A stretch of 64,000 nt of DNA from Candidatus Bathyarchaeota archaeon (GTDB lineage Archaea > Thermoproteota > Bathyarchaeia > Bathyarchaeales > Bathycorpusculaceae), in assembly GCA_963832745.1 (NCBI GenBank), contig CAWHVC010000002.1, positions 160,001-224,000 on the forward strand, read 5' to 3'. Of this stretch, positions 11,803 to 58,755 are shown in pieces. The position numbers and the translations under genes were made by a program. Below the pieces are notes generated by a model. It ran no database searches. It saw only the letters and a list, made by a program, of their open reading frames with translations, and was not told the origin of the DNA. Numbering within the stretch: position 1 is the first letter of the stretch; each line of letters opens with the position of its first letter.

Positions 11803-11826
11803 TGTAGTTGCGGTTTTGCAATCACA
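11803..11826 (+). promoter_or_regulatory. Palindromic regulon site upstream of catalase
   Basis: TGTAGTTG-cggttttg-CAATCACA, 4 bp, then tttaaaaa. Confidence 0.75.
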
Positions 11827-11894
11827 AATTTTTAAAAATATAGTTTGGTCTAAACAGCTTGAGTTTCTTTGGAATTTTTGAATAAAATTTTGAG

Positions 11895-14063
11895 TTGATT
11901 ATTTTGGAAAAAAATGAAAAGAAATCTCAATCAAAAACAATTGATAATCTTGAATCCTACAGAGTTGAATCCAAAAACCAGCAATTAACAACCAATACAG
12001 GCGTAAAAATTAATGACACCGATAACTCACTGCGAGCGGGTCCTCGTGGACCGACGCTTTTGGAAGATTTCCATTTTAGAGAAAAACTGACGCATTTCGA
12101 CCATGAACGCATACCTGAAAGAGTTGTCCACGCAAGAGGCTCAGGCGCGCATGGCTACTTCCAAGTTTACAAATCAATGAATAAATATACTAAAGCAAAG
12201 TTTCTGCAAGACCCCGAAACAAAAACGCCCGTTTTCGTTCGTTTTTCAACTGTTGCTGGTTCTCGAGGTTCAGCGGACACTGTGCGCGATGTCCGAGGTT
12301 TTGCCACACGATTCTATACTGAGGACGGAAATTATGACTTAGTTGGAAACAACATCCCCATCTTCTTTATACAAGATGCTATTAAATTTCCCGACTTAAT
12401 CCATGCTGTTAAGCCTGAACAGGATAACGAGATTCCTCAAGCAGCCACTGCGCATAACACTTTTTGGGATTTTGTGGCTAATAACCCTGAAATTGCTCAC
12501 ATGATTATGTGGGCTATGTCTGACCGGGCGCTTCCCCGAAGTTTTCGTATGATGGATGGTTTTGGAGTAAACACTTACCGCTTTGTTAACGAAGAGGGTA
12601 AATCGTGTTTTGTAAAGTTCCATTGGCGTGCAATGCTTGGTGCGCATTCGTTGGCATGGGATGAAGCCCAGAAAATTGCTGGTAAAGACCCTGACTTTAA
12701 TCGTCGTGATCTTTGGGAAGCTATTGAGATGGGTGATTTTCCTGAATACGAGTTTTCTGTGCAGATTATTGATGAGGCGGATGCGGAAAAGTTTGATTTT
12801 GATATTTTGGATGCTACAAAGATTTGGCCTGAAGAACTGGTGCCCTTGCAGCCTGTTGGTAAGATGGTTTTGAACCGTAATCCTGACAATTTTTTTGCGG
12901 AAACTGAGCAGGTGGCTTTTTGTCCTGCGAATGTTGTTCCGGGTATTGATGTTAGTGATGATCCGTTGTTGCAGGGTAGATTGTTTTCGTATTTTGATAC
13001 GCAGCTTACACGTTTGGGTGGGCCGAATTTTAATGAGATTCCTATTAACAAGCCGGTGGTGCCGGTTGTTAATAATCAACGTGATGGTTTTCATCAAATG
13101 AATATCAATAAGGGTTCAGTGGCGTATTACCCTAACTCTCTTAATGATAATTATCCTCGGGCTGGATTGGACTCCAAGGCGGGTTACGTGCATTACCCTG
13201 AAAGGGTGCAAGGGGATAAGGTGCGGGTTAGGAGCGAGACTTTTCAAGAGCATTTTGGTCAGGCGATTTTGTTCTGGAACAGCATGACGGAACCCGAAAA
13301 ATATCATATTATCAAGGCGTTTCATTTTGAAGTTGGAAAAGTTACTGATATGGTTACGCGCCAAAAAATTGTTGATATGTTTAACAATGTGGATAATGAA
13401 CTTGCTAAAGCTATCGCGTTAGGTGTGGGTGCTAATCCGCCAAAACCTGTTGAACGCCATATGCCTAAGGTTTTGGTGTCTAAGGCTTTGTCGCAGGATA
13501 ATCCGCAACGTCGCAGCGCTAAAACCCGTAAAGTAGCAATTTTTATGATGGACGGGTTTAATGATGAAGAGTTAATGTTGGTTAAGGATTCTTTAACGGC
13601 GGCGGGGGTTCATGTTACGGTGATTTCGCAGTACTTGAGTCCAATTAAAAGTTTAAACGGCAAACAATTTGTTCCTGACAGCAACTTTGTTGGCGCTGCA
13701 AGTTCAGTTCTTTTTGACGCAATTTATATTCCGGGTGGTGAGGCAAGCATTGACGCTTTGGCGCATCAAATGTTTGTGTTGGAGTTTCTAAATGAAGCTT
13801 ATAAGCATTGTAAGGCGATTGCGGCTTCAAGTGAAGGCATCGGGTTATTGCAGCAAACGGTTAGTGAGGCTAAACTTGCATTTTCAAATGCTGTGGTGTC
13901 GGATAAGGGTGTGGTTACTTGTATGGGTGCGCCGACTGAAGAGTTTACTGGGGCTTTTTTGGATGCGATTGCTAAGCATCGGCATTGGGTGCGGGAGAAA
14001 ACCGAGGATGTTCCGGTTGAGCTTCAGGCTGTGCTTGGTGAATGGTTAACTAAAGAGCAGTAA
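11895..14063 (+). CDS. katE: Large-subunit catalase HPII (clade 2) with C-terminal DJ-1/PfpI-like domain
   Basis: HFDHERIPERVVHARG, RFSTVAG, DLVGNN, LQGRLFSY heme-ligand motif; C-terminal RKVAI...FDAIYIPGG...AYKHCKAI. Confidence 0.97.
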   Translation: MIILEKNEKKSQSKTIDNLESYRVESKNQQLTTNTGVKINDTDNSLRAGPRGPTLLEDFHFREKLTHFDHERIPERVVHARGSGAHGYFQVYKSMNKYTKAKFLQDPETKTPVFVRFSTVAGSRGSADTVRDVRGFATRFYTEDGNYDLVGNNIPIFFIQDAIKFPDLIHAVKPEQDNEIPQAATAHNTFWDFVANNPEIAHMIMWAMSDRALPRSFRMMDGFGVNTYRFVNEEGKSCFVKFHWRAMLGAHSLAWDEAQKIAGKDPDFNRRDLWEAIEMGDFPEYEFSVQIIDEADAEKFDFDILDATKIWPEELVPLQPVGKMVLNRNPDNFFAETEQVAFCPANVVPGIDVSDDPLLQGRLFSYFDTQLTRLGGPNFNEIPINKPVVPVVNNQRDGFHQMNINKGSVAYYPNSLNDNYPRAGLDSKAGYVHYPERVQGDKVRVRSETFQEHFGQAILFWNSMTEPEKYHIIKAFHFEVGKVTDMVTRQKIVDMFNNVDNELAKAIALGVGANPPKPVERHMPKVLVSKALSQDNPQRRSAKTRKVAIFMMDGFNDEELMLVKDSLTAAGVHVTVISQYLSPIKSLNGKQFVPDSNFVGAASSVLFDAIYIPGGEASIDALAHQMFVLEFLNEAYKHCKAIAASSEGIGLLQQTVSEAKLAFSNAVVSDKGVVTCMGAPTEEFTGAFLDAIAKHRHWVREKTEDVPVELQAVLGEWLTKEQ

Positions 14064-14131
14064 TTTTTTTCTATTCTTTTTTGTAGGTTTTGCTGAAGAG
14101 GAAAATCTAAATGTGAGTTTCCGCAAACTAT

Positions 14132-14560
14132 TTGCAGTTGATGATTATGAGTATAAAAGAAGACCCAATTAAACTCCACAAAGACGCTAATGCTTTGATG
14201 GAAAACGGCAAATATGTTGAAGCACGTGAACTTTTCTCCAAAGTAGCTGAACTTTACTTTAAAGGGCAAAACTATTTCGGCGCTGCTGAAATGAACTACA
14301 AAGCCGGCGAATGTAGCGTAAACCTGAAAGAGTATCCCCAAGCCGTTGAATCCTTCAATAAAGCTGCAGATATCGCTTTAAACAAGGGTTTTGACCGTTA
14401 CGGGTTAAGCGCGTTGGAACAAGCCCGAGACAGCCAAAAAGCGGCAGGTAACAGCAAAGAAGCGGAAGAAATCGATGCCCGCATAAAAGAAATTAATGAC
14501 AAAATCAACAAGCAGAATGCTGTCGGCGACGAAGAATCGTCTTTTTCAGTGTTCTCTTAA
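14132..14560 (+). CDS. TPR-like helical repeat protein (alpha-SNAP-like pattern)
   Basis: EARELFSKVAELY...AAEMNYKAGEC...AVESFNKAADI repeats. Confidence 0.7.
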   Translation: MQLMIMSIKEDPIKLHKDANALMENGKYVEARELFSKVAELYFKGQNYFGAAEMNYKAGECSVNLKEYPQAVESFNKAADIALNKGFDRYGLSALEQARDSQKAAGNSKEAEEIDARIKEINDKINKQNAVGDEESSFSVFS

Positions 14561-14704
14561 ACGCAACTTTTTTCTTTTCTTTATTTTTAAAATTCTAATT
14601 TACTGGTTTTCAACATGTTACTGGCATGTTTTTCAACCAATACGACCTGCCCCCTTAGTGATTTTGGGCTGAATAAGGGTGGATAGAGTCTACCCGTCTG
14701 GTTT

Positions 14705-14771
14705 TACTCTACCCCTTTAGGTTTTTGCATTGATCTGCTATTTGGATCCTAATAGACTCCTAATAGGTTGG
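14705..14771 (+). repeat. Dispersed intergenic repeat, copy 2 (internal duplication of ctaatag)
   Basis: tactctacccctttaggtttttgcattgatctgctatttggatcctaatagactcctaataggttgg. Confidence 0.85.
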
Positions 14772-18219: not shown

Positions 18220-18897
18220 TTAGACTCGCAAGACTATTTTTTCTGTGTACTTGCCAAGTATGCCTGCGAACTCGTTTATGGTTTCAGGCGCGTATGGATG
18301 TACTGTCTGGAAATGTTTGTCCATAGTGTTTTCTGGTACGAATTGTTGTAGTGCGTGGGTTTTGGCGCCTTTTGTTAATTCGCCGATTTTGTCAGCGTCT
18401 TGCAGGGTTACGAGTTCAGGTACGATGGTGGTGCGGAATTCGTAGGGTACTTTGCCCATTTTGAGCATTTCCAAGCTTTTCATAAGGTTGCTGGTGTCTT
18501 CTGCGCCGAGTTCCTTGTATTTTTCTGGGCAAGTCTTAACATCCAACGCCACGTAATCCACGTAGCCGAGGCATTCCTCAAGCACTTCAGGGTAGAACCC
18601 GTTTGTGTCAAGTTTGACGTAGAAGCCGCGTTCTTTGAGTTTGGCAAGGAATTTAGGCAGTTCCCGGTGCATACAGGGTTCACCACCTGTGACTACTACG
18701 GCGTCAACATATTTTTTGCGACTCTCCAAAATCTCCAACGCGGCGGCTTCCTGTAGAAACGGCGGTTGCGGGTCTGTAGCGATTTTCCAGTTGTGACAAT
18801 ACGGACAGCGAAGGTTGCAGCCGGGGGTAAATAGCACGCTGGCTATCTTATCGGGGTAGTCAAGCAAACTTAATTTTTGTAATCCGCTAAACTTCAT
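18220..18897 (-). CDS. nrdG: Anaerobic ribonucleotide reductase activating enzyme (radical SAM)
   Basis: SLLDYP, GCNLRCPYCHN, TGGEP, KLDTNG; directly after nrdD. Confidence 0.93.
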   Translation of the reverse strand: MKFSGLQKLSLLDYPDKIASVLFTPGCNLRCPYCHNWKIATDPQPPFLQEAAALEILESRKKYVDAVVVTGGEPCMHRELPKFLAKLKERGFYVKLDTNGFYPEVLEECLGYVDYVALDVKTCPEKYKELGAEDTSNLMKSLEMLKMGKVPYEFRTTIVPELVTLQDADKIGELTKGAKTHALQQFVPENTMDKHFQTVHPYAPETINEFAGILGKYTEKIVLRV

Positions 18898-18912
18898 TTT
18901 CCATGTCTCACC

Positions 18913-21039
18913 TTAATGTACTAGGGGATTTGAAGCGATGACTGTTGAGCGGTCAAAGGTTTTGCGTATGGCGAATTCTGCTTGTTTTCCGTTGTTCCAT
19001 TGGTCAACTGGTCGTAGGTAACCGACTACGCGGCTGTATACTTCGCTGGTTGCGCCGCAGACTGGACAATTTTTGTGTTCTCCTGTAGTGTAGCCGTGAG
19101 TTGGACAGATGCTAAAGGTTGGCGTTAAAGTGAAGTATGGCAGTTTAGAGTTCAAAGACACCTTTTTAACCAGTTCAGCTGCCGACTTCCAAGAAGGCAA
19201 ACGTTCACCAAGAAATATGTGAAAGTTAGTGCCTCCAGTGTAAAGCGGTTGAAGCGTTTCTTGATGTTCGAGTGCTTCAAAGAGGTCACCTGCAAAGTCA
19301 ACTGGCAACTGTGAAGAGTTGGTGTAAACTGGTTCAGCATGCTCTTTCTTAATGTGTTTTTGGTTGGCAAATATGATGTCACGGTAACGTTTCTGGTCAA
19401 TGCGGGCTAACCGGTATGCTGTGCCTTCTGCTGGAGTAGCTTCCAAATTATAGATGTCGCCTGTTTCTTCTTGATACTCACTTATGCGTTTACGCATGAA
19501 CATGAGTGTTTTAACCGCAAATGCTTGCCCCTCTTTAGAAGCAATGTCTTGCCCAAGCAAGTTAAGAACCGCCTCGTTTACGCCTACAATGCCAATGGTT
19601 GAGAAGTGATTCTTCCAGTATTTACCAAACGCCTCCTTTACATGGCGCAGGTAACGTTTCGAGTATGGATATAACCCGTTGTCAGTGAAGCCTTCAAGCA
19701 CTTTACGTTTAATTTCCAAACTTGATTTAGCCACATCCATCAAGTTGCCTATCCTTTCAAAGAATTCATCTTCATCTCTGGACAAATAGCCAACTCTTGG
19801 AATGTTTAAGGTAACTACACCTATGCTGCCTGTTAATGGGTTAGCACCGAAGAATCCGCCTCCACGTTTACGCAGTTCACGGTTATCAATGCGTAACCTG
19901 CAGCACATGCTACGAACATCTTCAGGGTTCAAATCGCTGTTTATGAAGTTGCTAAAGTTAGGCACACCATATTTGGCTGTGACTTCAAATATTGCCTGTG
20001 AAACTGGTGAATCCCACTCGAAGTCTTTGGTGATGTTATAGGTTGGAATTGGGAAAGTGAACACTCGACCTTTTGAATCACCTTGAGCCATAACTTTAGC
20101 AAAGGCAAGATTGAACATCTCCATTTCTTTGGTCATATCACCGAAAGTGTCCTGAGTAACTTTGCCATTGTAAATTACTGGCTCATTCTTCATGAAGCTT
20201 GGAACAGTCAAGTCCAAAGTCAAGTTAGTGAATGGAGTTTGGAAACCGACACGTGTGGGCACGTTCATGTTGAAGAAGAATTCCTGAAGCGCCTGCTCAA
20301 CATCTTTGGTGGTTAAATGGTCATACCGGATAAACGGTGCAAGGTACGTATCAAAATTACTGAACGCTTGTGCACCTGCAGCTTCACCTTGCAATGTGTA
20401 GAAGAAGTTCACAACTTGACCAAGGGCTGTTCGAAAGTGTTTTGCTGGTTTGCTTTCAATTTTTCCTGCAACACCGCCAAAACCTGAAAGCAGTAGGTCG
20501 CTTACATCCCAACCGACACAGTACGGTCCAAGAACACCAAGGTCATGAATGTGAAGGTCGCCTGAAAAGTGGGATTCAGCGATTTTAGATGGGTAAATAC
20601 GGCTTATCCAATACTTTGCGATTACTGTGGATGAAAGATAATTGTTCAACCCTTGCAGTGAGTAGCTCATGTTGCTGTTTTCTTTAACTCGCCAATCTTC
20701 AACCTCAAGGTACTGGTCAACAAGGTCAGCACTGCTTAAGAGTGCGGCAAGTTCACGCATGTCATTATGCTGTTTACGGTACAAGATGTAGGCTTTAGCG
20801 GTTGAGGCGTGACCATTTTCGATTAACTGCTTTTCAACCCGGTCCTGGACTTCTTCAACGGTAGGAACACCGTCGTCGCCATATTGCTTGTTTAATGCAG
20901 CTACTACTTCATCACAGATGCGTTTAGCCTGCGCTTTATCTTTTCCGCCAACAGCCTTGGCAGCTTTCCAAATGGCTTGTGTAATACGATCTGGGTCAAA
21001 GGGTTCTAATTTACTATCACGTTTTAGTACAAACTTCAT
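18913..21039 (-). CDS. nrdD: Class III (anaerobic) ribonucleoside-triphosphate reductase with N-terminal ATP cone
   Basis: ATP cone (VLKRD..EPFD..VEEVQDRVE), HIHDL, SMCCRL, EATPAEG, C-terminal Zn site and YSRVVGYL glycyl-radical motif. Confidence 0.97.
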   Translation of the reverse strand: MKFVLKRDSKLEPFDPDRITQAIWKAAKAVGGKDKAQAKRICDEVVAALNKQYGDDGVPTVEEVQDRVEKQLIENGHASTAKAYILYRKQHNDMRELAALLSSADLVDQYLEVEDWRVKENSNMSYSLQGLNNYLSSTVIAKYWISRIYPSKIAESHFSGDLHIHDLGVLGPYCVGWDVSDLLLSGFGGVAGKIESKPAKHFRTALGQVVNFFYTLQGEAAGAQAFSNFDTYLAPFIRYDHLTTKDVEQALQEFFFNMNVPTRVGFQTPFTNLTLDLTVPSFMKNEPVIYNGKVTQDTFGDMTKEMEMFNLAFAKVMAQGDSKGRVFTFPIPTYNITKDFEWDSPVSQAIFEVTAKYGVPNFSNFINSDLNPEDVRSMCCRLRIDNRELRKRGGGFFGANPLTGSIGVVTLNIPRVGYLSRDEDEFFERIGNLMDVAKSSLEIKRKVLEGFTDNGLYPYSKRYLRHVKEAFGKYWKNHFSTIGIVGVNEAVLNLLGQDIASKEGQAFAVKTLMFMRKRISEYQEETGDIYNLEATPAEGTAYRLARIDQKRYRDIIFANQKHIKKEHAEPVYTNSSQLPVDFAGDLFEALEHQETLQPLYTGGTNFHIFLGERLPSWKSAAELVKKVSLNSKLPYFTLTPTFSICPTHGYTTGEHKNCPVCGATSEVYSRVVGYLRPVDQWNNGKQAEFAIRKTFDRSTVIASNPLVH

Positions 21040-21485
21040 TGTTTCTTCACTTCCATAAGTAATCGCCCGAAGTCTTCGGGTTCTTCAAACTTTTTGTAAA
21101 CAGAAGCAAACCGGATGTAGGCGATGCGGTCCACGTTTTTGAGGTATTTCATGATTAAATCGCCGATTTCTTGTGACGAAACTTCCTCAACGCCTTTCGC
21201 CATCAGGTCTTGCCGTACATGTCCTGCTAACTCATTGATTTGAGTCATTGTTACTGGCCGTTTTTCACACGCTTTTTGCATGCCGCGGATTATTTTGTTG
21301 ACGTCAAAACGTTCAAGTTTGCCGTCTTTTTTGCGTACCATCAACTCTATTGTTTCAACATACTCGTAGGTTGTGAATCGTTTGCCGCAGTTAATGCATT
21401 CTTTTCGTCGGCGTGTAGTGTTGTCTGGGGAATCGCGTGTTTCTAGGGTTTTGAAGTTTTCAGAGCCACAGTAAGGACATTTCAT
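21036..21485 (-). CDS. nrdR: Transcriptional repressor NrdR
   Basis: MKCPYCG..TRRRKECINCGKRFTTYE, ATP cone, DRIAYIRFASVY. Confidence 0.96.
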   Translation of the reverse strand: MKCPYCGSENFKTLETRDSPDNTTRRRKECINCGKRFTTYEYVETIELMVRKKDGKLERFDVNKIIRGMQKACEKRPVTMTQINELAGHVRQDLMAKGVEEVSSQEIGDLIMKYLKNVDRIAYIRFASVYKKFEEPEDFGRLLMEVKKQ

Positions 21486-21524
21486 AAATTTCACACAGGT
21501 ATAGTGCCGACAAGCTTACACGAT

Positions 21525-24099: not shown

Positions 24100-24123
24100 A
24101 AGTGCTGTCCTTATACAGTCACA
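24100..24123 (+). promoter_or_regulatory. Partial regulon site upstream of the PAS gene
   Basis: aagtGCTG-tccttata-CAGTCACA; right half perfect, left half partial, TATA weak. Confidence 0.45.
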
Positions 24124-28586: not shown

Positions 28587-31500
28587 ATGCAAACATGCGA
28601 TATTTTGAAGTTAAATAGGATAAAAGGGAAAAATGTGAAAATAAAAAGCGCTTACACGATATTACTTTTAGGTCTTCTGCTACTTGCAACCGTTACAATC
28701 GCAACCAATAATGTCTCAGCTGCAGGTCCAACAACCGTGCTTCTCGGAACAGCTGCTAATTTCTCAGTTTTAGCTGGCTCTGGAATCACTAACACCGGTC
28801 CAACCACAATTTATGGAGATGTTGGCACTTTTCCGACGCCTTCACAGACGGGATTTGGTAGCGTAACTATAATTGGAACCAACCATGTAGACGATGCTGT
28901 CACACAACAAGCCAAAATCGACCTTGTAACCGCTTACAATGATGCTGCTGGAAGAACACCAGTTACTACTGTAGCCACTGAACTCGGTGGAACTACCCTC
29001 GTACCTGGAGTCTACAATTCCGCATCAGGCACTTTTCAAATAACTGGAACAGTGACGCTTGATGGACAAGGTGACCCTAATGCGGTTTTCATTTTCCAGA
29101 TGGCAAGTACACTTGTCACTGCATCATCTAGTGTTGTACTTCTTATAAACGGTACTCACTCTTGCAACGTTTTTTGGCAAGTTGGAAGCTCAGCAACTAT
29201 TGGCACTTCTTCTTCTTTTGTAGGAACAATTTTGGCTTTAACCTCAATCACATTGACTACAGGCGCTACAGTAGATGGCAGAGTATTGGCACGCAATGGC
29301 GCAGTCACAATGGACACTAACACCATTGGCCAAACGGTACATCTTGAAGGCATAACTTTAACCCCTGCGAACGCCACAAACCCTGTTGGTACTAACCACA
29401 CTATCACTGCAACTGTAGCAGGGACAGGCGATCCAGTTCCTAATCGTAACGTCAACTTTACAGTTGTTTCAGGTCCCAACGCAGGATTAACAGGCTCAGC
29501 CATAACTGACAGCAACGGACATGCATCATTTACTTATACGAGCAACTCTCCTGGCACAGATACAATTCAGGCAAGCTTCGAAAACAGTCAAGGCGTGACA
29601 GTTATTTCAAGTCCAGTAACAAAAACTTGGACTCCGCTACCTGGCCCAGCCATAATTGTATCTAAGCAGGTTTCGAGCGATAATGCTACTTGGCTTGACG
29701 CAGATTTGCCACCTGGACTAATAGTCACAGTTGGTTCAAACGTGTATTACCGATTTAACGTGACAAACATTGGCAATGTTCCATTAACTAACGTCAATTT
29801 GACAGACAACACCTACACTTTGAGTGGCGCTTCTGTTCCAACTTTGGCTCCCGGCGAATCTTTTGTCTACTATTATGGTCCTGTTCTTGCTCAGTTAGGT
29901 CTGCATACAAACACTGCAACAGCTTCAGGGCAATCTGATAGTACAGTTATTAGCGATACTGACAACGCAAACTACAATGGCACACCAGAATCTATTCCTT
30001 CAATAAATGTGGTTAAACAGATTTCTGGTGATAACGCTACATGGGTTGACGCAGATTTGCCTCCTGGAATCTCAGTTGTTATTGGCGCAAATGTGTACTA
30101 TAGGTTCAATGTTACAAACACTGGCAATGTTGCATTATCTAATATTACTTTGACTGATAATACGTATGATTTAAGCAGTGCAGTGGTTCCGCCAACTTTG
30201 GCTCCTGGTGCTTCCTTTGTCTACTACTTTGGCCCAATTTCGGCACTATCAGGTCAACACACAAACATTGCAACTGCCACTGGCGAATTTAATAATGTAG
30301 TGGTCAGTGATACTAACAATGCAAACTATAACGGTGTTCCAGTAACAATTGTTTCAATAAATGTGGTTAAACAGATTTCTGGCGACAACAAGACTTGGCT
30401 TGACGCAGATGCTCCACCCGGACTCATTGTCACTATTGGTTCAAACGTTTACTACAAGTTCAATATCACAAACACAGGCAACGTTACATTAACTAATATT
30501 ACTTTGACAGATAACACCTATTGTTTGAAAGGTCTTCACTTACCTTCAAGCTTAGCTCCTGGAGAATCATTTGTCTACTATTTGGGACCAATTACTGCTC
30601 AGTCAGGACAACACACAAACATTGCTACTGCAACAGGTATCTACAATAATGTAACCTACACCGATACAGACAACGCAAACTACAACGGAACCAAGGCCGT
30701 CAAACCTTCAATATGCATAGTCAAATATGTCTCAGTTGATTGCGGCAAAAAATGGTGTGACGCTAACTGTGCGCCAGGTCCAATAATTCAAGCTGGCAAG
30801 AGCGTGTATTTCAAGTTTGAAGTCAAAAACACGGGTAATGTTGCTCTAACTAACATAAGCCTTGCAGACATGCCGTTCATAAACTTCTCAAATGCCAATA
30901 TTCCAACCACCCTTCAACCAGGAAAATCGTTTAAAGTCATCATTGGACCAATATGCGCTGGTTTACTACAAAATTGCGATAAAGCAACAGTAACTGGAAC
31001 CTATGCTAACGTAACATATTCTGACTGTGATGTTGCCAACTATTATGGTTCACTTTGCACCTACACTGCATGCTCATACGCTGGAACTGGCACAGCAGGC
31101 AAACTGCTGAATTGCTATTATAAGACTGCTTTCTGCTCAGGATTGCAAGTCGGCTACTACTATAGTGACTCAGGTTACGGCTATAAGTGGACAAGCGACA
31201 AAGTAAGCAGTTTAAAGGCGTTCCTTAAATGCACTGGGACTAGCGGAATAATAAAATGTGATAAGCTTAACCCTGTAAACACTAAATATGGTGGTGGCAG
31301 CTTAGCTGTTCAAGTAGCAACTTTAACAATAAACATAGCTTACGTAGACTTATCTATAAAATGTATACCAAATGGACTTGGAGATTTACACTACTGCAAA
31401 GCTGGCGATTCACTTAACGGCAAAACAGTATCCGAAATATTAGTTATTGGAAACGGCGTTTTAGGTGGTCAACCATTACCCCAAGGTTACACATACACTT

Positions 31501-31589
31501 CATTAAACAGTTTAATTCAGCATCTGAACGAAGCCTTTGGCAATGGACAACCAACATCGTGGGCAAGAACATACCTAAAAGTAAGCTAA
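28587..31589 (+). CDS. Secreted DUF3494 ice-binding-like protein with an Ig-like domain, four ~118-aa repeats and a Cys-rich C-terminal domain
   Basis: Signal peptide; LGTAANFSVLAGSGITNTGPT..LVPGVY..LDGQGDPNAVFIFQ..NVFWQVGSSAT..GRVLARNGAVTMDTN; repeats with YRFNVTNTGNV. Confidence 0.9.
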   Translation: MQTCDILKLNRIKGKNVKIKSAYTILLLGLLLLATVTIATNNVSAAGPTTVLLGTAANFSVLAGSGITNTGPTTIYGDVGTFPTPSQTGFGSVTIIGTNHVDDAVTQQAKIDLVTAYNDAAGRTPVTTVATELGGTTLVPGVYNSASGTFQITGTVTLDGQGDPNAVFIFQMASTLVTASSSVVLLINGTHSCNVFWQVGSSATIGTSSSFVGTILALTSITLTTGATVDGRVLARNGAVTMDTNTIGQTVHLEGITLTPANATNPVGTNHTITATVAGTGDPVPNRNVNFTVVSGPNAGLTGSAITDSNGHASFTYTSNSPGTDTIQASFENSQGVTVISSPVTKTWTPLPGPAIIVSKQVSSDNATWLDADLPPGLIVTVGSNVYYRFNVTNIGNVPLTNVNLTDNTYTLSGASVPTLAPGESFVYYYGPVLAQLGLHTNTATASGQSDSTVISDTDNANYNGTPESIPSINVVKQISGDNATWVDADLPPGISVVIGANVYYRFNVTNTGNVALSNITLTDNTYDLSSAVVPPTLAPGASFVYYFGPISALSGQHTNIATATGEFNNVVVSDTNNANYNGVPVTIVSINVVKQISGDNKTWLDADAPPGLIVTIGSNVYYKFNITNTGNVTLTNITLTDNTYCLKGLHLPSSLAPGESFVYYLGPITAQSGQHTNIATATGIYNNVTYTDTDNANYNGTKAVKPSICIVKYVSVDCGKKWCDANCAPGPIIQAGKSVYFKFEVKNTGNVALTNISLADMPFINFSNANIPTTLQPGKSFKVIIGPICAGLLQNCDKATVTGTYANVTYSDCDVANYYGSLCTYTACSYAGTGTAGKLLNCYYKTAFCSGLQVGYYYSDSGYGYKWTSDKVSSLKAFLKCTGTSGIIKCDKLNPVNTKYGGGSLAVQVATLTINIAYVDLSIKCIPNGLGDLHYCKAGDSLNGKTVSEILVIGNGVLGGQPLPQGYTYTSLNSLIQHLNEAFGNGQPTSWARTYLKVS
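29649..31050 (+). repeat. Four tandem intragenic domain repeats, period 351-354 bp
   Basis: Units start at 29649, 30000, 30354 and 30708; units 2 and 3 both begin tcaataaatgtggttaaacagatttctgg. Confidence 0.9.
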
Positions 31590-38055: not shown

Positions 38056-38556
38056 GTGAAAGAGGAACAGTTAAACATTTTAAAATTAATGAGCCAAGTC
38101 ACAAACCGCATGGACTTAACCATGTTTGCCCAAAAAGTCAACCTTGACCCTCAAGAAGCCATGGCAAATGTGCAAGAACTTGCGCATAAAGGTTTAGTGC
38201 GCAAAACTGGCAGCGGTTACGGCGTAACTGAGAAAGGCAAAGCGGCAATCAAAGCCTTCACGCCAGTGCCAGAAGACAAAAGTTTCCACTTCTATACCGG
38301 AATCGGTTATCCAACAGTTTACATTGCACAAAGCCTCTCCGACTTTTATGGTATTGCACGGCAAATTGGCGAAGACAGCCTTGAATTTCATTTATCACGT
38401 GGCGACTTTTCTAAATGGGTGGATGATGTTCTTGTTGACTGTGAATTGGCTGAAAAAATCGAAGACATAAAAAAAGCTAATCCAAAATGTGATGCAATTA
38501 GGAAAGAGCTCCTAAAAGCAATTGACCAAAAATATAGCCTCAAAGACTTACTTTAA
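38056..38556 (+). CDS. wHTH plus DUF5752-like domain protein
   Basis: N-terminal HTH (YGVTEKG); FHFYTGIG..SLEFHLSRGDFSKW. Confidence 0.75.
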   Translation: MKEEQLNILKLMSQVTNRMDLTMFAQKVNLDPQEAMANVQELAHKGLVRKTGSGYGVTEKGKAAIKAFTPVPEDKSFHFYTGIGYPTVYIAQSLSDFYGIARQIGEDSLEFHLSRGDFSKWVDDVLVDCELAEKIEDIKKANPKCDAIRKELLKAIDQKYSLKDLL

Positions 38557-45838: not shown

Positions 45839-45997
45839 TTATTTCCACAACTTTTTGCCAGTAAACAGCCAAATGACCACTAAGACTAATGCAATCACAA
45901 GCAGTATATGTATCAATGTGCCTATGCCTGGCAAAGCAAAGAATCCAACCAGCCAAAGTATCACAACAATTACCGCTATTGTTAATAATGTGTTCAT
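45839..45997 (-). CDS. lmo0937/DUF5670-like small membrane protein (not in ORF track)
   Basis: MNTLLTIAVIVVILWLVGFFALPGIGTLIHILLVIALVLVVIWLFTGKKLWK. Confidence 0.85.
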   Translation of the reverse strand: MNTLLTIAVIVVILWLVGFFALPGIGTLIHILLVIALVLVVIWLFTGKKLWK

Positions 45998-46011: not shown

Positions 46012-46302
46012 CTAAGCCTCAACTACTGGCCTTAGGTACATGTGCAGTTGATCTTTTGATACTTTTAAGTGTAGACCCTTGTCCGTCCAGCGTGCAACCC
46101 CTTTTTCTAGGGCTGAAATGGCCAACATGTTTCGTACTCCGCCTTTTTTTACGCCAAGTACTGATTCGGCTATGCTCTTTTCTAATTCAATTTCGAGGTG
46201 AGTAATCTTCCACTCTTCAGGATCAATTTCTATTTCTTTTACTTTGCCGATTTTCTCGTCTAACGCAAAAACATCTTTATCCATAAATTCTTTACTTTTC
46301 AT
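46012..46302 (-). CDS. PRC-barrel domain protein
   Basis: EFMDKDVF..KIGKVKEIEIDPEEWKITHLEI. Confidence 0.85.
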   Translation of the reverse strand: MKSKEFMDKDVFALDEKIGKVKEIEIDPEEWKITHLEIELEKSIAESVLGVKKGGVRNMLAISALEKGVARWTDKGLHLKVSKDQLHMYLRPVVEA

Positions 46303-46374
46303 ACTACTTGTTCTTCCCGGTAATACCAATGATTTGAGATACAATACACATAGCCATTGGCAGAGTTAAGCGCT

Positions 46375-46398
46375 TGTTACTGTGATCCCACACCGACA
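46375..46398 (-). promoter_or_regulatory. Palindromic regulon site (PRC-barrel/lmo0937 genes)
   Basis: + strand TGTTACTG-tgatccca-CACCGACA; cttaac TATA-like element 4 bp downstream on the minus strand. Confidence 0.75.
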
Positions 46399-46697: not shown

Positions 46698-47697
46698 TTA
46701 GGTTGTTACCACTGTGGTTTGATCAATTATCTTTGCCAGTGGAGCATTCGTTTTCACTGATGCTATGCCATTTTCGGCTGACTGTTTGGATAGGTAAGAT
46801 TGGCTTACAGCAATTATCTGTCCAGTAGCTGCTTTCAAATGGAAACGATATCTATCAGGTGCATTGAATTGAATTTCGAAAACTGGAGCTTGAACAATTT
46901 CAACGTGGTGAACGGGTATAGTTCCGCCGGTCGTGTAATCAGCCGTTTTAGCTATTGGTGCATTCTTTTTTATTGACGCAATACCTTTTAGAGCATTTTC
47001 TCTTGTCCCGTACGAGTGGCTTACAGCAATTATCTGTCCGTTAGCTGCTTTTAAATGGAAACGGAATCTGCCTGCAATATCACATAAAACCTCAAAAACG
47101 CCTGTCACTTTCGCCACTACAGGAATCGGTTCAGTTATCACTTCAGTGGGTGGCAATGGTTCCTCAACTGGTAGTAATTGGTTCTGGGATTTTATCAGTT
47201 GCGTGACCCTTCTTTGTATGAGCATTCATTTCTTCCATAGTCATGAAGCCCAATCCGCATATAGGGCATGTAAGTTCCATATTTGGCATAAGTACTCCAT
47301 TCAAAACGTGTATTATTCCGTTGTCTGTTACAATGTCTGTGTTTATCATATGTGCGTCATTGATTAACGGGTTATAATGGGAAGTCCACCAGTGGGCGGC
47401 ATCAATTTTAACGTCTTGCCCTTGAAAAGTTTTCATAGTCTTCATTTGACCTATTTCGTCAACCGTAAACTTTCCCATGACAATATGGTACATCAAAATA
47501 GCCTTGAGTTTTGGAACATTTTTCAATAATCCATCAAGTGTGCCTGCGGTAAGCTTTGCAAAAGCATCATCATTTGGGGCAAAAATTGTAAACGGTCCTT
47601 TGCGTTTCAACGTTTCAACTAATCCTGCCGCTTGTACGGCTGCAACAAATTTTGTGAAACCGCCAGCTTCGACGGCAATATCAAATATATCTGCCAT
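46698..47697 (-). pseudogene. Fasciclin (FAS1) - C2H2 zinc finger - Pro-rich linker - tandem YegP/DUF1508 fusion, split by a 1-bp shift near 47178
   Basis: GPFTIFAPNDDAF and NGIIHVLNGVLMP; CPICGLGF..AHTKKGH; two copies of GRFRFHLKAANGQIIAVS..Y..GIASIK; removing one A restores EPLLPVEEPLPP. Confidence 0.8.
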
Positions 47698-47771
47698 TTA
47701 TTTTCAAATCCTATAAAAATTTTCTTCTATCTACTTAGAGTATACTACAGTGATCTAAGGATAAATAACCG

Positions 47772-47795
47772 TGTGACTGGGGAGCCACAGATACA
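47772..47795 (-). promoter_or_regulatory. Palindromic regulon site (fasciclin-YegP gene)
   Basis: TGTGACTG-gggagcca-CAGATACA; tatttat 4 bp downstream on the minus strand. Confidence 0.78.
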
Positions 47796-47871: not shown

Positions 47872-48657
47872 TTAGCTTTCAGCTTTTTCCCAGTCAGATT
47901 CAAAACTTGTTCTTAACACGCCAATAAGGTTGCTATTGTTTGTCCACAAAGAAGGGCTTTCACCTAATCCGCATTCTTTAGAGGTAGTAATCAACGCTTC
48001 TTTATCATCAGACATTATAAAATGATTCAACGCTTCACTATGAAACCTGATATGAACCGAATCGATACCAACGACTTTTTTCACTTTTTCCTTTAACAAG
48101 TCGTCTGGGCTTTCTCCTTCAAAAAGGAGCCGAACCTGAGTACCTTCAGTTATTGCCAGTTTATATTCATCTGAAAACTGAGCCAAAATTGGCATAATTC
48201 TTTCTTTATCTGAGATCAACGCAACTTCTCGTCTAGAGTTACTAATCAGCCCCGCAGTCTTTGCCAAAATTGCCTTCTTTTCCGCTATCAAAATGTAAAT
48301 GCTTTCTTCTCCAAGAGGCGATTGCTTCCAATCTTTGAGGGATAGCTTCTGAACCATGCTCCTCATGCCCATCAACCGTTCTTCGGCCTTGTTTTTTTCT
48401 TCTGCCACTAGTAACGCTAAGGAATCTGAAATAAGGGTTGCTCTGACCTCAGTTGGTTTGCCCAGTAACCTTTCAACTAAGCCCATTTTTTCGAGTGCAG
48501 GCAGTAGTCTATAGACATCTTCCCTGCGCACTTTTGAAAATTTCGATACCTGTCTAACAGTAGTTTTTTCCAGTTTAAGTATCGCTAAGTAAACCTTTGC
48601 CTGATTAAGAGTCAAGCCCAAACCAAGTAAAAGCTCAGTGTTTTCATCGTTAGACAT
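47872..48657 (-). CDS. TrmB-family transcriptional regulator
   Basis: LGLTLNQAKVYLAI..REDVYRLL..LEKMGLV HTH; C-terminal FIMSDDKEALI..SFESDW effector domain. Confidence 0.9.
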   Translation of the reverse strand: MSNDENTELLLGLGLTLNQAKVYLAILKLEKTTVRQVSKFSKVRREDVYRLLPALEKMGLVERLLGKPTEVRATLISDSLALLVAEEKNKAEERLMGMRSMVQKLSLKDWKQSPLGEESIYILIAEKKAILAKTAGLISNSRREVALISDKERIMPILAQFSDEYKLAITEGTQVRLLFEGESPDDLLKEKVKKVVGIDSVHIRFHSEALNHFIMSDDKEALITTSKECGLGESPSLWTNNSNLIGVLRTSFESDWEKAES

Positions 48658-50056: not shown

Positions 50057-50079
50057 TGTCTGTGGGGTGCCCCATCTAC
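50057..50079 (-). promoter_or_regulatory. Regulon site variant (7-bp spacer)
   Basis: TGTCTGTG-gggtgcc-CATCTACA; aataaaag 4 bp downstream on the minus strand. Confidence 0.55.
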
Positions 50080-51836: not shown

Positions 51837-52037
51837 TTATGCTTTCTTTGGTTTTATGCTAAGTTTAACATTGAGCTCAATGGTGTATTCTTGGTCCGTG
51901 TTTCCAACAGCGAAGTTCCAGTTCTTAACTTCTACGTCCATGTCCTTAAAATGATTCATGAATGAATCCTTATATTCACTAACGGTCTGGCCCATTTTCT
52001 GCAACCGCTCAGTTACATCTATATTTTTTTCAGTCAT
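51837..52037 (-). CDS. Small hypothetical protein
   Basis: 66 aa, gaggcg RBS, regulon site upstream. Confidence 0.75.
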   Translation of the reverse strand: MTEKNIDVTERLQKMGQTVSEYKDSFMNHFKDMDVEVKNWNFAVGNTDQEYTIELNVKLSIKPKKA

Positions 52038-52101
52038 TTAACTACGCCTCTAAAATTTCAATTCAATACAACCGTTAACCTGCACATTGCTCTTAAGACT
52101 A

Positions 52102-52125
52102 TGTCGCTGGGAACTAACACCTACA
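52102..52125 (-). promoter_or_regulatory. Palindromic regulon site
   Basis: TGTCGCTG-ggaactaa-CACCTACA; cttaag 4 bp downstream on the minus strand. Confidence 0.78.
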
Positions 52126-52382: not shown

Positions 52383-52406
52383 TGTAGCTGTTAGTTACCA
52401 GTCACA
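52383..52406 (+). promoter_or_regulatory. Palindromic regulon site (closest to consensus)
   Basis: TGTAGCTG-ttagttac-CAGTCACA-cact-ttaaaa. Confidence 0.8.
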
Positions 52407-52453
52407 CACTTTAAAATTGTAAAAACACCTCTTTGAGGGCAGGAAAAAATTAG

Positions 52454-52813
52454 ATGTCGGTAAAGTTTTCACTAAGTGAAATAATCACTGCAATCCTAAA
52501 TGAAATCAAAGCGGCACTCAAAGAATACGCCAATCAAGCGAAAGTCACCTTCAAAAAACGCCTCAAAAAACTCTTAATAATAAGCATATTCGGCACTGTC
52601 TTGATGGCACTGGGAATCTCGCTCGCTGGGTCAGCAGCTCTTTTCATCCTCATCGGCTCACTAAGATACCTAGAAACCTCTATGCCCGCGTGGGAAGCAT
52701 GGCTCATCATGGGAACCACCTCCGCCCTTGCCGCCGCAGCACTATTCGTAGTGCTCTTTCTAATAATAAGAAAACAATTATCCTCCCCCAAAGTGCCACC
52801 TGAACAAAAATAA
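52454..52813 (+). CDS. Two-TM membrane protein, YqjE/holin-family-III-like (DUF1469-like)
   Basis: Amphipathic N-terminus, then TM - MPAWEAWLIMG - TM. Confidence 0.7.
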   Translation: MSVKFSLSEIITAILNEIKAALKEYANQAKVTFKKRLKKLLIISIFGTVLMALGISLAGSAALFILIGSLRYLETSMPAWEAWLIMGTTSALAAAALFVVLFLIIRKQLSSPKVPPEQK

Positions 52814-53026
52814 GGCTCCTCTCTTTTTTATTTCTTGGTGATGGAAAAAAACTAATTGAATTCACGCCTAATGTCTATGAAAAGCGAAAACAGCACCTAT
52901 GAGAGTAAAGGAACTATTAATTCAGATTGATATAAGAATACTGATGAAGTCCAGATTAAAATCTTGGAGCTGTAGGTCCACATTCACAAAGTTATTTATC
53001 TAAAATTAAGCATTAGATGGAATGGC

Positions 53027-53366: not shown

Positions 53367-53735
53367 CTATTTCGACAGCAATCCACCTATGAATCCACCG
53401 ATCGTTGATGCAAGCGCTCCAAAGATAGCAAGAATAATAGCTACTATTCCAACTGCAAATCCAGCCAAACCACCGAAAAGACCACCTAAGATGCCTCCAG
53501 AGACTCCTCCAACAATTGCAAGACCGACAACTGCGAATATTGTGATTATGATGCCGCCAAATATGCCGGCAAGGAAACCTGCTAATGCACCTGTTAACAT
53601 TCCTCCGCGAGATATAATGCCCGCTACAACTCCACCTATGAATCCGCCTATCAAGTGTCCAATGCCGGGAAACAGCCAACCAAGAACCAATGTAATAACG
53701 AAACCTACCAAAGCTCCAAGCCACAAACTACTCAT
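53367..53735 (-). CDS. DUF5518-like glycine-zipper membrane protein
   Basis: PGIGHLIGGFIGGVVAG..GALAGFLAGIFGG..IGGFIGG. Confidence 0.8.
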   Translation of the reverse strand: MSSLWLGALVGFVITLVLGWLFPGIGHLIGGFIGGVVAGIISRGGMLTGALAGFLAGIFGGIIITIFAVVGLAIVGGVSGGILGGLFGGLAGFAVGIVAIILAIFGALASTIGGFIGGLLSK

Positions 53736-53840
53736 AAAATCACCACCATTTTTATCTAAATAGACAATTTTGTACATTCAACAACCTTACAACTCGGCAA
53801 TCAATAGAGCCGTATGTGAAAATTCACATATACGCTTTTT

Positions 53841-53966: not shown

Positions 53967-54013
53967 TTACATTACCCTCTCTTTCAATAGTCGCTATTTG
54001 CAACTTAAGCATG

Positions 54014-54037
54014 TGTGACTGTAAGTACCCATCGACA
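54014..54037 (-). promoter_or_regulatory. Palindromic regulon site
   Basis: TGTGACTG-taagtacc-CATCGACA; cttaag 4 bp downstream on the minus strand. Confidence 0.78.
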
Positions 54038-54109: not shown

Positions 54110-54436
54110 TTAGGAGAATATGAAGCCAAGGATTAAGCCTACGATGAATCCTATGCCTAACGGTAGTATGCCTATGAGAAGTGTTCCGTATTGGATTACA
54201 ATGGGACCGTATGTGTTTGACAGGTTTTGCAACGCGCTAAGACTCAGCCCAAAAAATCCGAAGTAGCAAACAACTACGAGTATAACTGCAGCGATGATCG
54301 CGATCTTTAGTGTCTTGTGGACGAGATAGCCTACGACTAATCCGAGAATGAATGGAATAATCATTACTAAAATTGGTGGCAAACCGCCTATGCTTCCAGA
54401 AGTAATAAAACCAATTAAATCATTTATAGCGCTCAA
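54110..54436 (-). CDS. FUN14-like membrane protein, copy 1
   Basis: PFILGLVVGYLVHKTLKIAII..GFIVGLILGF; close paralog at 56867. Confidence 0.72.
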   Translation of the reverse strand: MSAINDLIGFITSGSIGGLPPILVMIIPFILGLVVGYLVHKTLKIAIIAAVILVVVCYFGFFGLSLSALQNLSNTYGPIVIQYGTLLIGILPLGIGFIVGLILGFIFS

Positions 54437-54487
54437 ACTCTACAACTCACAATTAAGCCCTAACGGTGCAAATAACTATTAAACCTG

Positions 54488-54511
54488 TGTAGCTGTAGTC
54501 CCCCAGCAACA
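54488..54511 (-). promoter_or_regulatory. Palindromic regulon site
   Basis: TGTAGCTG-tagtcccc-CAGCAACA; tttaata 4 bp downstream on the minus strand. Confidence 0.8.
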
Positions 54512-56798: not shown

Positions 56799-56866
56799 TA
56801 TGTACCCTTACCAAGTATGCTTAAGTGAGGCTAAATACGTTTGCGGTGTATTACGGCGTGTTGGGT

Positions 56867-57193
56867 TTAGGAGAATATAAATCCAAGGATTAAGCCCACT
56901 ACGAATCCAACGCCTATTGGTAATATGCCTATCAGTAATGTTCCATATTGAATTGCCATTGGACCGTATGTTTCTGCGACGCTTTTCAAAGAGTCAAGGC
57001 TTAAACCGAAAAAGCCCAAGTAACTAACTACGACTAGTATAACTGCAGCGATGATGGCGATTTTTAAAACTTTATGCACGAGATAACCCACGATTATTCC
57101 TAAGATGAATGGGATAATCATTACTACTAGTGGCGGTAAACCTGCAATGCTTCCTGAAGTAATAAAGTTGAATACTTGTTCTATCGCGCTCAT
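56867..57193 (-). CDS. FUN14-like membrane protein, copy 2
   Basis: Same length (108 aa) and highly similar to 54110..54436. Confidence 0.72.
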   Translation of the reverse strand: MSAIEQVFNFITSGSIAGLPPLVVMIIPFILGIIVGYLVHKVLKIAIIAAVILVVVSYLGFFGLSLDSLKSVAETYGPMAIQYGTLLIGILPIGVGFVVGLILGFIFS

Positions 57194-57319
57194 TTTTTGT
57201 TTGCTCCAAGTAAGCCCTAAATGTAAAAATGTCTATTAAACCTGTTAGCTGTTTTTTCCAAAATCTATTTATCCGTATCAATACAAGCGTGAACAGGTAA
57301 ACAGAAAATAGACAGGGGG

Positions 57320-58501
57320 ATGGGGGAAATACAACCAGAACAGGAACATTTAACTCCAGAAACGGCACAAACCGCTTTTCAAGTATCACAATCCAACTGC
57401 ACGTTGGAAATATCTCAAAGACGATGGTTCTACATGGCTCTGGATTCATCAGGCAAAACCTGCAAGCAGGAAGCTGAATCGCCAACTCAATTTTTAGACA
57501 TTATCAACCAGTCAATGGTGGTTTGGGTCGACTACACATCAGATGACCCCGTTAAAGACCTGCCAGTTTTAGCTGCCAAACTGGGATTTAGTGAATTATT
57601 TATTTCAAGCGTAAGCGGCGGAAACGCGTTAAATTATCAAGACTTCGATTCTGAAATGTTTATGAATCTTCCATCAATCCAAATTCGAGGTCACGACGTA
57701 CAAGCTTACCCCTTGCTGTTTTTAATTAAAAAAGGCATGGTTTTTACCATTCACATGCGTCTTGTGGATAAACGTTTCATTAGGCTTAGACGTTACTCTG
57801 ACGTTATCATGCGAAGAGTGCCCGTCGAGTTTGAACCTGAAGAAAAACTTACTCTTCTTCTTTCACGTATAATTGATGCAAATAACGACAGCAACTTTAG
57901 GCATTTGCGTGCCATAGAGGAATTCGGCGACGACCTAAACAAGGACCTTATGGAACAAGACACAGACAGAACCCTTTTAGCTCCAAAAATTTACGATATG
58001 AAGCATGCACTTATCGTTTACATGAATGCTCTTTGGGAAAGCGCGGATGTACTTCATGCAATCCGTTACGGCGACGCTGAACTGCTTACTGACAACGAGC
58101 ACGTCCTAAACAAGGTCAGCTTCCTTGCGGATGAAGTCAAAAGCCAGCTTGGGCTGTCTGAGCACATGTCTGAAGTTTTAGCGTCAGGTATTGAAGCTAC
58201 CCAATCCATCTATAACAACCAGTTAACTATCGCCAATAATCAGTTAACCATTTCAAACAATCAGCTTACTAAGATGAACAACCGTTTCGCGTTGCTTGCG
58301 GCTTACCTTGCAATTGTAGGTACAGCGCTTTTGATTCCAAATACTATCGCTACTATGCTGGGTAACAGTGTCTGGGTTTATGGCCCCGGCGATTTAGGGT
58401 CTTACCTTGTTTTAATACTCAGTGCTACTTTAGCAGGCTCTATTGTCATGTGGCTTTGGATAAAAAAGCAGGACTTGCTGCCAAAAGACAAAGAACATTA
58501 A
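57320..58501 (+). CDS. CorA-family divalent cation transporter
   Basis: VVWVD, long helical stalk, two C-terminal TMs; GMN-equivalent reads LGNS. Confidence 0.8.
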   Translation: MGEIQPEQEHLTPETAQTAFQVSQSNCTLEISQRRWFYMALDSSGKTCKQEAESPTQFLDIINQSMVVWVDYTSDDPVKDLPVLAAKLGFSELFISSVSGGNALNYQDFDSEMFMNLPSIQIRGHDVQAYPLLFLIKKGMVFTIHMRLVDKRFIRLRRYSDVIMRRVPVEFEPEEKLTLLLSRIIDANNDSNFRHLRAIEEFGDDLNKDLMEQDTDRTLLAPKIYDMKHALIVYMNALWESADVLHAIRYGDAELLTDNEHVLNKVSFLADEVKSQLGLSEHMSEVLASGIEATQSIYNNQLTIANNQLTISNNQLTKMNNRFALLAAYLAIVGTALLIPNTIATMLGNSVWVYGPGDLGSYLVLILSATLAGSIVMWLWIKKQDLLPKDKEH

Positions 58502-58515
58502 ACGCACTCTTTTTT

Positions 58516-58671
58516 TTAAAAGTCATAACGTGAAAGGTCAAGTTGTGAACCACATTCAGGGGTCACAAAATAAAACACGTAACCACACTTGCCACATCGG
58601 CGTTCCTGATTTTTTATTCTTTCAATCGCATTGGAACCGCATTTTGGGCATTTCACTTCAACGTTTGACAT
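58516..58671 (-). CDS. 51-aa zinc-ribbon protein (not in ORF track)
   Basis: MSNVEVKCPKCGSNAIERIKNQERRCGKCGYVFYFVTPECGSQLDLSRYDF; ggag RBS. Confidence 0.78.
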   Translation of the reverse strand: MSNVEVKCPKCGSNAIERIKNQERRCGKCGYVFYFVTPECGSQLDLSRYDF

Positions 58672-58731
58672 TTTGCTCCACTTTCTCAATAATAACTAAC
58701 GGTTTCAATATTAAAGAGCGTTACCATTACC

Positions 58732-58755
58732 TGTTATTTCACGCTATCAATCACA
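58732..58755 (+). promoter_or_regulatory. Palindromic regulon site upstream of alcohol dehydrogenase
   Basis: TGTTATTT-cacgctat-CAATCACA-taat-gttaaatt. Confidence 0.65.

Follow-up and report, generated by a model that had tools for sequence, protein, structure and literature searches.

We identified a potential regulatory system in Bathyarchaeia that is centered on a 24-bp palindromic element, the dyad TGTNRYTG-N8-CARYNACA, which recurs directly upstream of TATA-like boxes in the genome of a Candidatus Bathyarchaeota archaeon, an uncultured organism of soil or gut. It came to light in a stretch of 64,000 nucleotides (nt) from this organism (the window; G000:C2:160001-224000, where G000 is the source genome of 3.02 Mb in 5 contigs), which carries an archaeal signal recognition particle RNA; judged by its sequence, the organism is a Bathy-6 Bathyarchaeion. 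A first-pass annotation of the window had listed eight such dyads, at 11803, 46375, 47772, 52102, 52383, 54014, 54488 and 58732, and all eight are present. The observation is thus confirmed and is larger than was stated there: as far as sequence can tell, the dyad marks about 60-80 promoters in the genome, far beyond the window, and it has both the promoter linkage and the two-fold symmetry expected of the site of a dimeric regulator. We infer that it is the upstream site of such a regulator, which would act as the activator of a stress or dormancy regulon; dimer binding, activation and the stress signal all belong to this inference, to which we assign a probability of roughly 0.55.

The dyad is strongly over-represented at every stringent threshold that we applied. 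The window has four exact matches to the pattern against 0.01 expected, a number that none of 100 shuffles reached, and ten matches with up to two mismatches against 3.04 expected, where the highest shuffle gave 7. Across the whole genome there are 30 exact dyads and 36 with one mismatch, and from these we built a symmetric weight matrix (17.5 bits in total) whose consensus for the sites of this genome is TGTGACTG-N8-CAGTCACA. At 16 bits or more the matrix finds 81 sites genome-wide against 9 in a third-order Markov shuffle; in intergenic DNA it finds 67, where 20 dinucleotide shuffles averaged 0.45 and never exceeded 2, and the genome-wide check against shuffled sequence thus yielded the enrichment anticipated of a real motif. 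At 20 bits or more, 42 of 43 sites are intergenic, though about 84% of the genome is coding by rough gene calls (our own codon-usage caller, taking the start of the longest open reading frame, ORF). Coding DNA holds 13 of the 82 sites of at least 16 bits, with 9 expected genome-wide, whereas at 10 bits or more the counts (242 real and 220 shuffled) are at the level of noise. Two further sites of the first-pass annotation fail by this measure: the supposed 23-bp variant at 50057 keeps just the TGT/TG/CA/ACA blocks and scores 3.3 bits, and the partial site at 24100 is, at 9.5 bits, indistinguishable from noise. The spacer is strict, with 81 sites of at least 16 bits having N8, 8 having N7 and 11 having N9. 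At the variable positions of the arms, complementary pairs are observed 24, 34 and 25 times against 30.1, 34.4 and 31.0 expected, that is, at or below what independence predicts. As the arms do not co-vary, the dyad is better seen as two independent half-sites bound by protein than as a hairpin; indeed, two-fold symmetric half-sites at a fixed spacing are what marks the operator of a dimeric protein.

The dyads also keep a fixed register to the core promoter. Of 69 intergenic sites, 50 have a TTWA core beginning 5-7 nt past the dyad on at least one side, whereas random intergenic positions gave 7.8 ± 2.7 (maximum 15) in the same test; hence the fixed TATA spacing proposed from the window extends to the genome. 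The flank toward the nearest gene start reads W-A-N-N-y-T-T-A-A-r, and at three sites there are TATA-like boxes on both sides, while neither the box nor the transcript start was seen to be covered by a dyad instead. The ordinary strong promoters of the genome (111 boxes) read AA-n-G-y-T-T-A-A-A-A. The box yTTAAr of the dyad promoters thus resembles the general yTTAAAA, save for an unusual G at base six (CTTAAG), which about 30% of dyad promoters have, compared with 2% of general ones, where CTTAAG has no positional peak. The distance from box to ATG peaks at 40-45 nt in dyad and ordinary promoters alike, and that from dyad to start codon at 40-50 nt. The ‘WA’ that follows the dyad is in the same register as the ‘AA’ found 2-3 nt ahead of ordinary TATA-like boxes, from which it follows that the dyad abuts a minimal element like the TFB recognition element (BRE) plus a TATA-like box and does not replace them. 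Thus, the earlier idea that the dyad ends where the BRE normally sits holds inasmuch as it lies directly upstream of the box, but not as a simple replacement of the BRE, given that ‘WA’ matches the general ‘AA’.

Motif and architecture are retained in relatives of this archaeon. With the reversed pattern as control, exact copies number 8-30 in 15 of the 18 other genus genomes (control, 0-1); G011 (58% complete) has one, and no exact dyads were found in G006 (96% complete) and G018 (88% complete). In 12 genomes from 11 sister families there are 0-1 copies, the rare matches being in coding DNA and without a box, and in a family-wide sample of 151 genomes at least five copies occur in 22, mostly larger genomes, spread over 10 of 70 genera. 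We further examined 43 dyads in loci of G013, G007 and G017: 32 flank an ORF with a homolog in the present genome, and for 25 of these 32 ORFs the homolog is dyad-linked here too, against a background of 101 of 3178 genes. The dense island of the window (46-59 kb, nine sites) has a syntenic counterpart with six sites in G013. Conservation in related genomes is thereby borne out: motif, architecture and many site-gene pairs are kept within the genus and in roughly nine other genera of its family, none of this having been observed in the sister families that were searched, and the candidate regulon of about 60-80 promoters is one conserved over several genera.

The targets assigned to Pfam families include a wealth of stress-type proteins: two KGG stress-repeat proteins, Hsp20, a catalase, dodecin, a PRC barrel, two DUF5670 proteins, two PF07332-like membrane proteins and two fasciclin proteins with YegP, with which we also grouped PEBP, UPF0047, DUF4342, DUF5518 and a CBS protein. 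Regulatory or sensor-type targets comprise three stand-alone RAM (AsnC-type) domains, a stand-alone DUF5752 domain, an Sso10a-like winged-helix protein, small C2H2 zinc fingers and a TFS-type paralog. Transporters are represented by MFS, P-type ATPase, CorA, and Na/Ca and Na/H exchangers, and enzymes are few (a zinc-type alcohol dehydrogenase, an ADP-forming acyl-CoA synthetase, a PPDK-like enzyme, a DEAD-box helicase and a sulfatase). Many targets are short hydrophilic or membrane proteins without a family. The designation as a general-stress regulon is accordingly apt in that stress-associated families are present, but it has to accommodate many familyless members and some ordinary enzymes and transporters. 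As a conserved member, katE had to be given up: among the catalases compared, only that of the present genome has a dyad directly upstream, with none at the catalases of G013, G015, G017 and G018 and the nearest dyad 790 nt off in G003.

Several individual dyads of the genome have features of their own. One of the best, at 25.1 bits, precedes the TFS/TFIIS-type paralog (Zn_ribbon_TFIIS plus RPB9 ribbon; G000 C5:517256-517841, locus L039:3001-3583), and its sequence is identical in G008. A uracil-DNA-glycosylase (UDG) family gene (G000 C4:229929-230476, locus L047) has a 23.4-bit dyad 11-16 nt before its longest-ORF start, a position conserved in G000, G007 and G017; the TATA-like box of this dyad points away from UDG, with no gene called there for 385 nt, and there may be an unannotated transcript on the far side, or UDG may be repressed. 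The two dyads at G000 C1:8011 and C5:89822 have near-identical flanks, the first being followed by a 46-amino-acid (aa) C2H2 zinc-finger ORF that the gene caller missed and the second by a frame-shifted copy.

In the mechanism that we favor, one homodimeric sequence-specific protein would bind the dyad directly upstream of the core promoter, the order being dyad, two bases ‘WA’, two variable bases and the yTTAAr TATA-like box. The centre of the archaeal TATA box lies about 26 nt before the transcript start, and on the assumption of this usual geometry the dyad would cover about -62 to -39. From this position the bound dimer would most likely help TBP/TFB onto the adjacent promoter, i.e., act as an activator, and could switch on about 60-80 promoters at once. 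Its output would consist mainly of small proteins, hydrophilic or membrane-bound, of the stress, dormancy and homeostasis types, with regulators, transporters and a small number of enzymes besides. Such a recruitment of TBP/TFB is in keeping with the single register of the dyads, with the boxes on both sides at three sites and with the unusual CTTAAG boxes. Moreover, archaeal activators typically bind upstream of the BRE, and repressors over or downstream of the promoter, according to the portion of PMC5512572 used here, with which the statement of the first-pass annotation that activators sit just upstream of TATA/BRE agrees.

Some observations weigh against activation. The gap between dyad and box is just 4-5 nt, and a protein on the dyad could hinder TFB, which is the geometry of a repressor; repressors also run many bacterial stress regulons. 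A few dyads lie 11-16 nt from a gene start, as at UDG, such that activation of the UDG gene does not fit, and the rough caller with its longest-ORF starts renders gene distances approximate. The mean best box score is 4.3 in dyad promoters and 5.0 in general ones, over search spans of unequal length; the ‘weak promoters’ of the earlier account are favored slightly by the G at the sixth base, the overall scores being similar. Finally, no candidate regulator that we examined fits all motif-bearing genomes. The same site and the same regulon could instead serve a bound dimer that is a repressor, blocking TFB/TBP at the BRE/TATA and released under stress, which we consider possible, if on the whole unlikely. 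The end of the dyad, 4-5 nt from the box, overlaps the zone contacted by TFB, many dyad promoters have near-consensus boxes, and the dyad-linked Sso10a-like DNA-binding genes would then be negatively autoregulated, a common design; such a system would resemble HrcA-CIRCE or the promoter-seated archaeal repressors. However, strict one-register spacing is unnecessary for simple occlusion, dyads over the box or transcript start were not seen, and in the arrangement given in the relevant part of PMC5512572 it is activators that lie upstream of the BRE, the place of repressors being the promoter itself or downstream of it.

The fixed register to the TATA-like box might also be that of a core-promoter element of extended form, recognised by an alternative general factor such as a TFB or TBP paralog, and the presence of a TFS paralog in the regulon and the want of a classical regulator fitting all genomes are in line with this. 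Yet TFB reads the BRE as a monomer, with which a perfect two-fold dyad of independent half-sites and strict 8-bp spacer is hard to reconcile, as are the three sites with boxes on both sides; hence, we judge this very improbable. Scarcely credible is a structural or mobile repeat (hairpin, terminator or transposon ends). The element is an inverted repeat, and its spacer is more uniform in G053, but there is no compensatory variation between its arms, its flanks are unrelated except for the TATA-like box (also in G053 and G048), and the sites are found upstream, not downstream, of genes and are kept ahead of orthologous ones.

Turning to the protein that would read the dyad under the favored activator model, sequence comparisons point to two imperfect candidate leads, namely TF-A and the Sso10a-like proteins. 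TF-A (38056..38553 of the window, + strand), a putative regulator, is a 166-aa protein with an N-terminal winged helix and a C-terminal DUF5752/OrfY-like domain. Its predicted model is confident (pLDDT 93), with the winged helix, unlike the rest of the model, superposing on MarR/PadR-type domains; when this model was compared by Foldseek, nothing came up at E 0.001 or better. PF19027 (DUF5752) is matched by both TF-A and the stand-alone member, with 36.3 and 36.5 bits against a cut-off of 23, and in a profile comparison the C-terminal domain of TF-A matches OrfY (4CSO) at E 3.9e-7. Full-length orthologs are found in 16 of the 18 genus genomes and are missing in the two motif-less ones. In the family sample, by a tally of the TF-A family made by hand, 18 of 22 motif-rich genomes have TF-A as against 16 of 129 motif-poor ones, and within genera g1, g22 and g26 motif and TF-A are absent together. 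Against this lead, G053 (20 sites), G048 (6) and G161 (5) lack TF-A and have only the paralog TF-B, though the sites of these genomes are true dyad promoters, and the recognition helix differs among TF-A orthologs; in G149 there is an N-terminal TF-A fragment. The dyad spacer of G053 and G048 (genera g35 and g30) is more constrained, with T at 9, A at 16 and often TG..CA, and these genomes without TF-A may possess a variant of the system.

None of 17 TF-A loci has a dyad within 300 nt upstream of the TF-A gene. The stand-alone DUF5752 gene has one upstream in 12 of 15 in-genus loci, in none of 5 loci of other families and in neither G053 nor G048, and in genera g14, g81 and g25 TF-A is present while the motif and the stand-alone gene are both absent. 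The conservation in the regulon of a stand-alone copy of TF-A's C-terminal domain hints at feedback through this domain. DUF5752/OrfY-like domains occur in fusion with a GH57 glycoside hydrolase, with a flavodoxin-like N-terminus and with winged helices (two paralogs), or alone, with examples at G000 C3:594370-595917 (L260), in G013 C38 (L239:3701-4504) and at 38056-38553 of the window; from these contexts the domain looks like a portable sensor or dimerisation module.

Of the 23 motif-bearing genomes that we examined, 20, among them G053 and G161, have an Sso10a-like gene of the HTH_45 family directly downstream of a dyad; for G016 (5 paralog loci), G048 (7 loci) and G009 (no hit; 56% complete) we found none so linked. 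The genes are clear Sso10a homologs (PF14947, E 5.6e-19; 1R7J profile, E 1e-14), with a predicted model that shows a wHTH (winged helix-turn-helix) at residues 35-88 and a helix at 90-109. This lead is countered by the occurrence of two types with unlike recognition helices in genomes that share the motif, on account of which the Sso10a-like proteins may simply be conserved targets.

Other candidates were rejected. The TrmB-like gene (47875-48657 of the window) beside the site at 47772 has orthologs of at least 74% identity only in G002, G003 and G013 (3 of 18), and in G017, where the motif is kept, there are just 2 distant TrmB-like hits. This family of about 260 aa has some 20 copies in the present genome, 10-19 in several relatives and 0-2 in G006, G017 and G018. 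The C2H2 zinc-finger target at C2:30508 has a counterpart in only one other genome (E 1.5e-26). TF-B (G000 C3:850339-850893), a universal paralog, is present with a conserved helix in motif-less genomes, where sites with up to one mismatch are not above control and the rare matches are in coding DNA. The genome also carries PadR genes and full-length Lrp/AsnC genes. More speculatively, and with a likelihood that we put low for the scheme as a whole, one might envisage a Bathy-6 general stress/dormancy programme run by one master activator that reads the dyad, a winged-helix dimer (Sso10a-like or wHTH-DUF5752) that would be the counterpart of sigma-B/RpoS, with feedback via the DUF5752 and RAM proteins of the regulon and with RNA polymerase reached via the TFS paralog.

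The dyad differs from familiar operators of similar appearance. CRP/FNR sites (TGTGA-N6-TCACA) have a 6-bp spacer, whereas the TGTGA/TCACA ends of the dyad are 14 bp apart and its inner TG/CA blocks are conserved too; likewise, the PadR operator has the core ATGT-N8-ACAT, unlike the core RYTG-N8-CARY of the dyad with its TGT/ACA blocks 5 bp outside. With the bacterial general stress regulons, those of sigma-B in Bacillus and RpoS in E. coli, the dyad regulon shares much content, namely KGG/GsiB-YciG type repeats, catalase, YqjE-like and YegP-like proteins, Hsp20, and small hydrophilic or membrane proteins. However, there is no sigma mechanism here, and a dyad beside the TATA box would replace the promoter-specificity subunit. 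Closer in architecture are Ptr2 of Methanocaldococcus jannaschii, TFB-RF1 (PF1088) of Pyrococcus furiosus, the EarA boxes and the Sulfolobus ara-box, where the site is likewise immediately upstream of the BRE/TATA and, in what PMC5512572 offers on this point, recruitment of TBP or TFB is proposed, as we propose for the dyad. These systems control one or a few promoters, whereas the dyad marks about 60-80 in one register; its sequence is unrelated to their motifs, and activation is in its case our proposal. The regulons of TrmB/TrmBL1 resemble that of the dyad in having a palindromic operator, a global archaeal reach and an effect that depends on position relative to TATA, as set out in parts of PMC4706686 and PMC4158304, but their targets are sugar genes and those of the dyad stress-type genes.

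Both leads for the dyad-binding protein have structural precedents. Sso10a (PDB 1R7J), known from Sulfolobus along with Sso10a2, is a dimer whose antiparallel coiled coil carries a winged helix at either end, a shape that could span half-sites 16 bp apart like those of the dyad; in the section of PMC4941522 that bears on this, however, these proteins behave like chromatin proteins, with no specific site known for them. OrfY of Thermoproteus tenax (PDB 4CSO), deposited as a ‘transcription factor’, shares the DUF5752 family with the C-terminal domain of TF-A and the stand-alone regulon member. Unlike TF-A, it is a tandem of two DUF5752 domains without a recognised winged helix. OrfY has been linked to the trehalose operon, and a search for OrfY and DUF5752 found nothing relevant in the literature collection covered.

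Archaea lack sigma factors and, to our knowledge, the coordination of a broad stress response in them is poorly known. A literature search on transcription-factor motifs of Bathyarchaeia, including the dyad, found no description, with subscription journals mostly outside its reach and supplements not covered. For these abundant and essentially uncultured archaea, our analysis yields a precise conserved cis-element, a strict promoter register, about 60-80 listed promoters, a set of small uncharacterised proteins that form a conserved core, and two concrete candidate proteins, and the question can be tested with recombinant proteins and metatranscriptomes, with no culture needed. Dozens of genes without known function also gain a likely condition, stress or dormancy, and a stress-controlled paralog of the RNA-polymerase cleavage factor TFS would, if true, be of interest.

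Within the window, the leftmost dyad (11803..11826; 21.7 bits, exact) has the TATA-like tttttaaaaa at 11829-11838 on its + side and is followed 68 nt later by the gene for a large-subunit catalase with Catalase and Catalase_C/DJ-1 domains (11895..14063, +). On its other side lies a divergent gene (10358-11752, -) for a pyridoxal-phosphate-dependent PALP-family enzyme fused to a C-terminal PadR winged helix. The remaining sites fall in the dense island. The dyad at 46375..46398 (15.7 bits, one mismatch), with the box CTTAAC at 46365-46370 on the minus strand, faces genes for a PRC-barrel protein (46012-46344, -), whose ortholog in G013 is likewise dyad-linked, and then a DUF5670 protein (45839-45997, -). 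That at 47772..47795 (16.7 bits), with the box TTATTTAT at 47761-47768 on the minus strand, would serve a fasciclin-domain protein (47164-47697, -), again with a dyad-linked ortholog in G013, and a DUF1508/YegP protein (46698-47225 in longest-ORF coordinates, -). The dyad at 52102..52125 (14.2 bits; box CTTAAG at 52092-52097) precedes a gene for a 66-aa protein without a Pfam family (51837..52037, -), of which an ortholog at 74% identity is dyad-linked in G013.

Further along, the dyad at 52383..52406 (22.2 bits, exact; box CTTTAAAA at 52409-52416) lies before a gene for a 119-aa membrane protein (52454..52813, +) that matches PF07332 (YqjE/Holin-X type) at E 3.8e-5, under the curated cut-off, and the YqjE-like target named earlier is thus supported by a family match, though a sub-threshold one. 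The dyad at 54014..54037 (16.0 bits; box CTTAAG at 54004-54009) has as its likely target a DUF5518 membrane protein (53367..53777, -) encoded 236 nt away; we found no minus-strand ORF of at least 20 aa in between, and the LEA-like peptide proposed for that interval was thus not found. The dyad at 54488..54511 (20.3 bits, exact; box TTTAAT at 54478-54483 on the minus strand) precedes a gene for a 108-aa membrane protein without a significant Pfam family (54110..54436, -). It has a paralog at 56867-57193, of which the dyad-linked copy in G013 is the ortholog. At the right end, the dyad at 58732..58755 (15.4 bits, one mismatch; box GTTAAAT at 58760-58766) lies upstream of a gene for a zinc-type alcohol dehydrogenase (58819..59823, +). 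Thus, Pfam upholds the identities given in the first-pass annotation to the catalase with a DJ-1 C-terminus, the PRC barrel, DUF5670, fasciclin, DUF1508/YegP, DUF5518 and the zinc-type alcohol dehydrogenase, while a FUN14-like target had as its sole basis a match at E = 0.37 and is not confirmed.

Two matches were absent from the earlier list. One is a weak extra dyad at 52965..52988 (two mismatches, 12.1 bits), which has TTATTTAT 3 nt after it and no clear target; the other, an exact match to the pattern at 62610..62633 (19.6 bits), is within a gene for a 932-aa PQQ/beta-propeller protein, has no TATA-like box and is probably a chance or non-promoter copy. Elsewhere, the window encodes the anaerobic ribonucleotide reductase NrdD, a radical-SAM activase and an NrdR-like protein with a Zn ribbon and an ATP cone (18223-21494, -), as well as a predicted surface protein of 1000 aa that combines an ice-binding-like domain with repeated Ig-like/DUF7507 domains (28587-31586, +).

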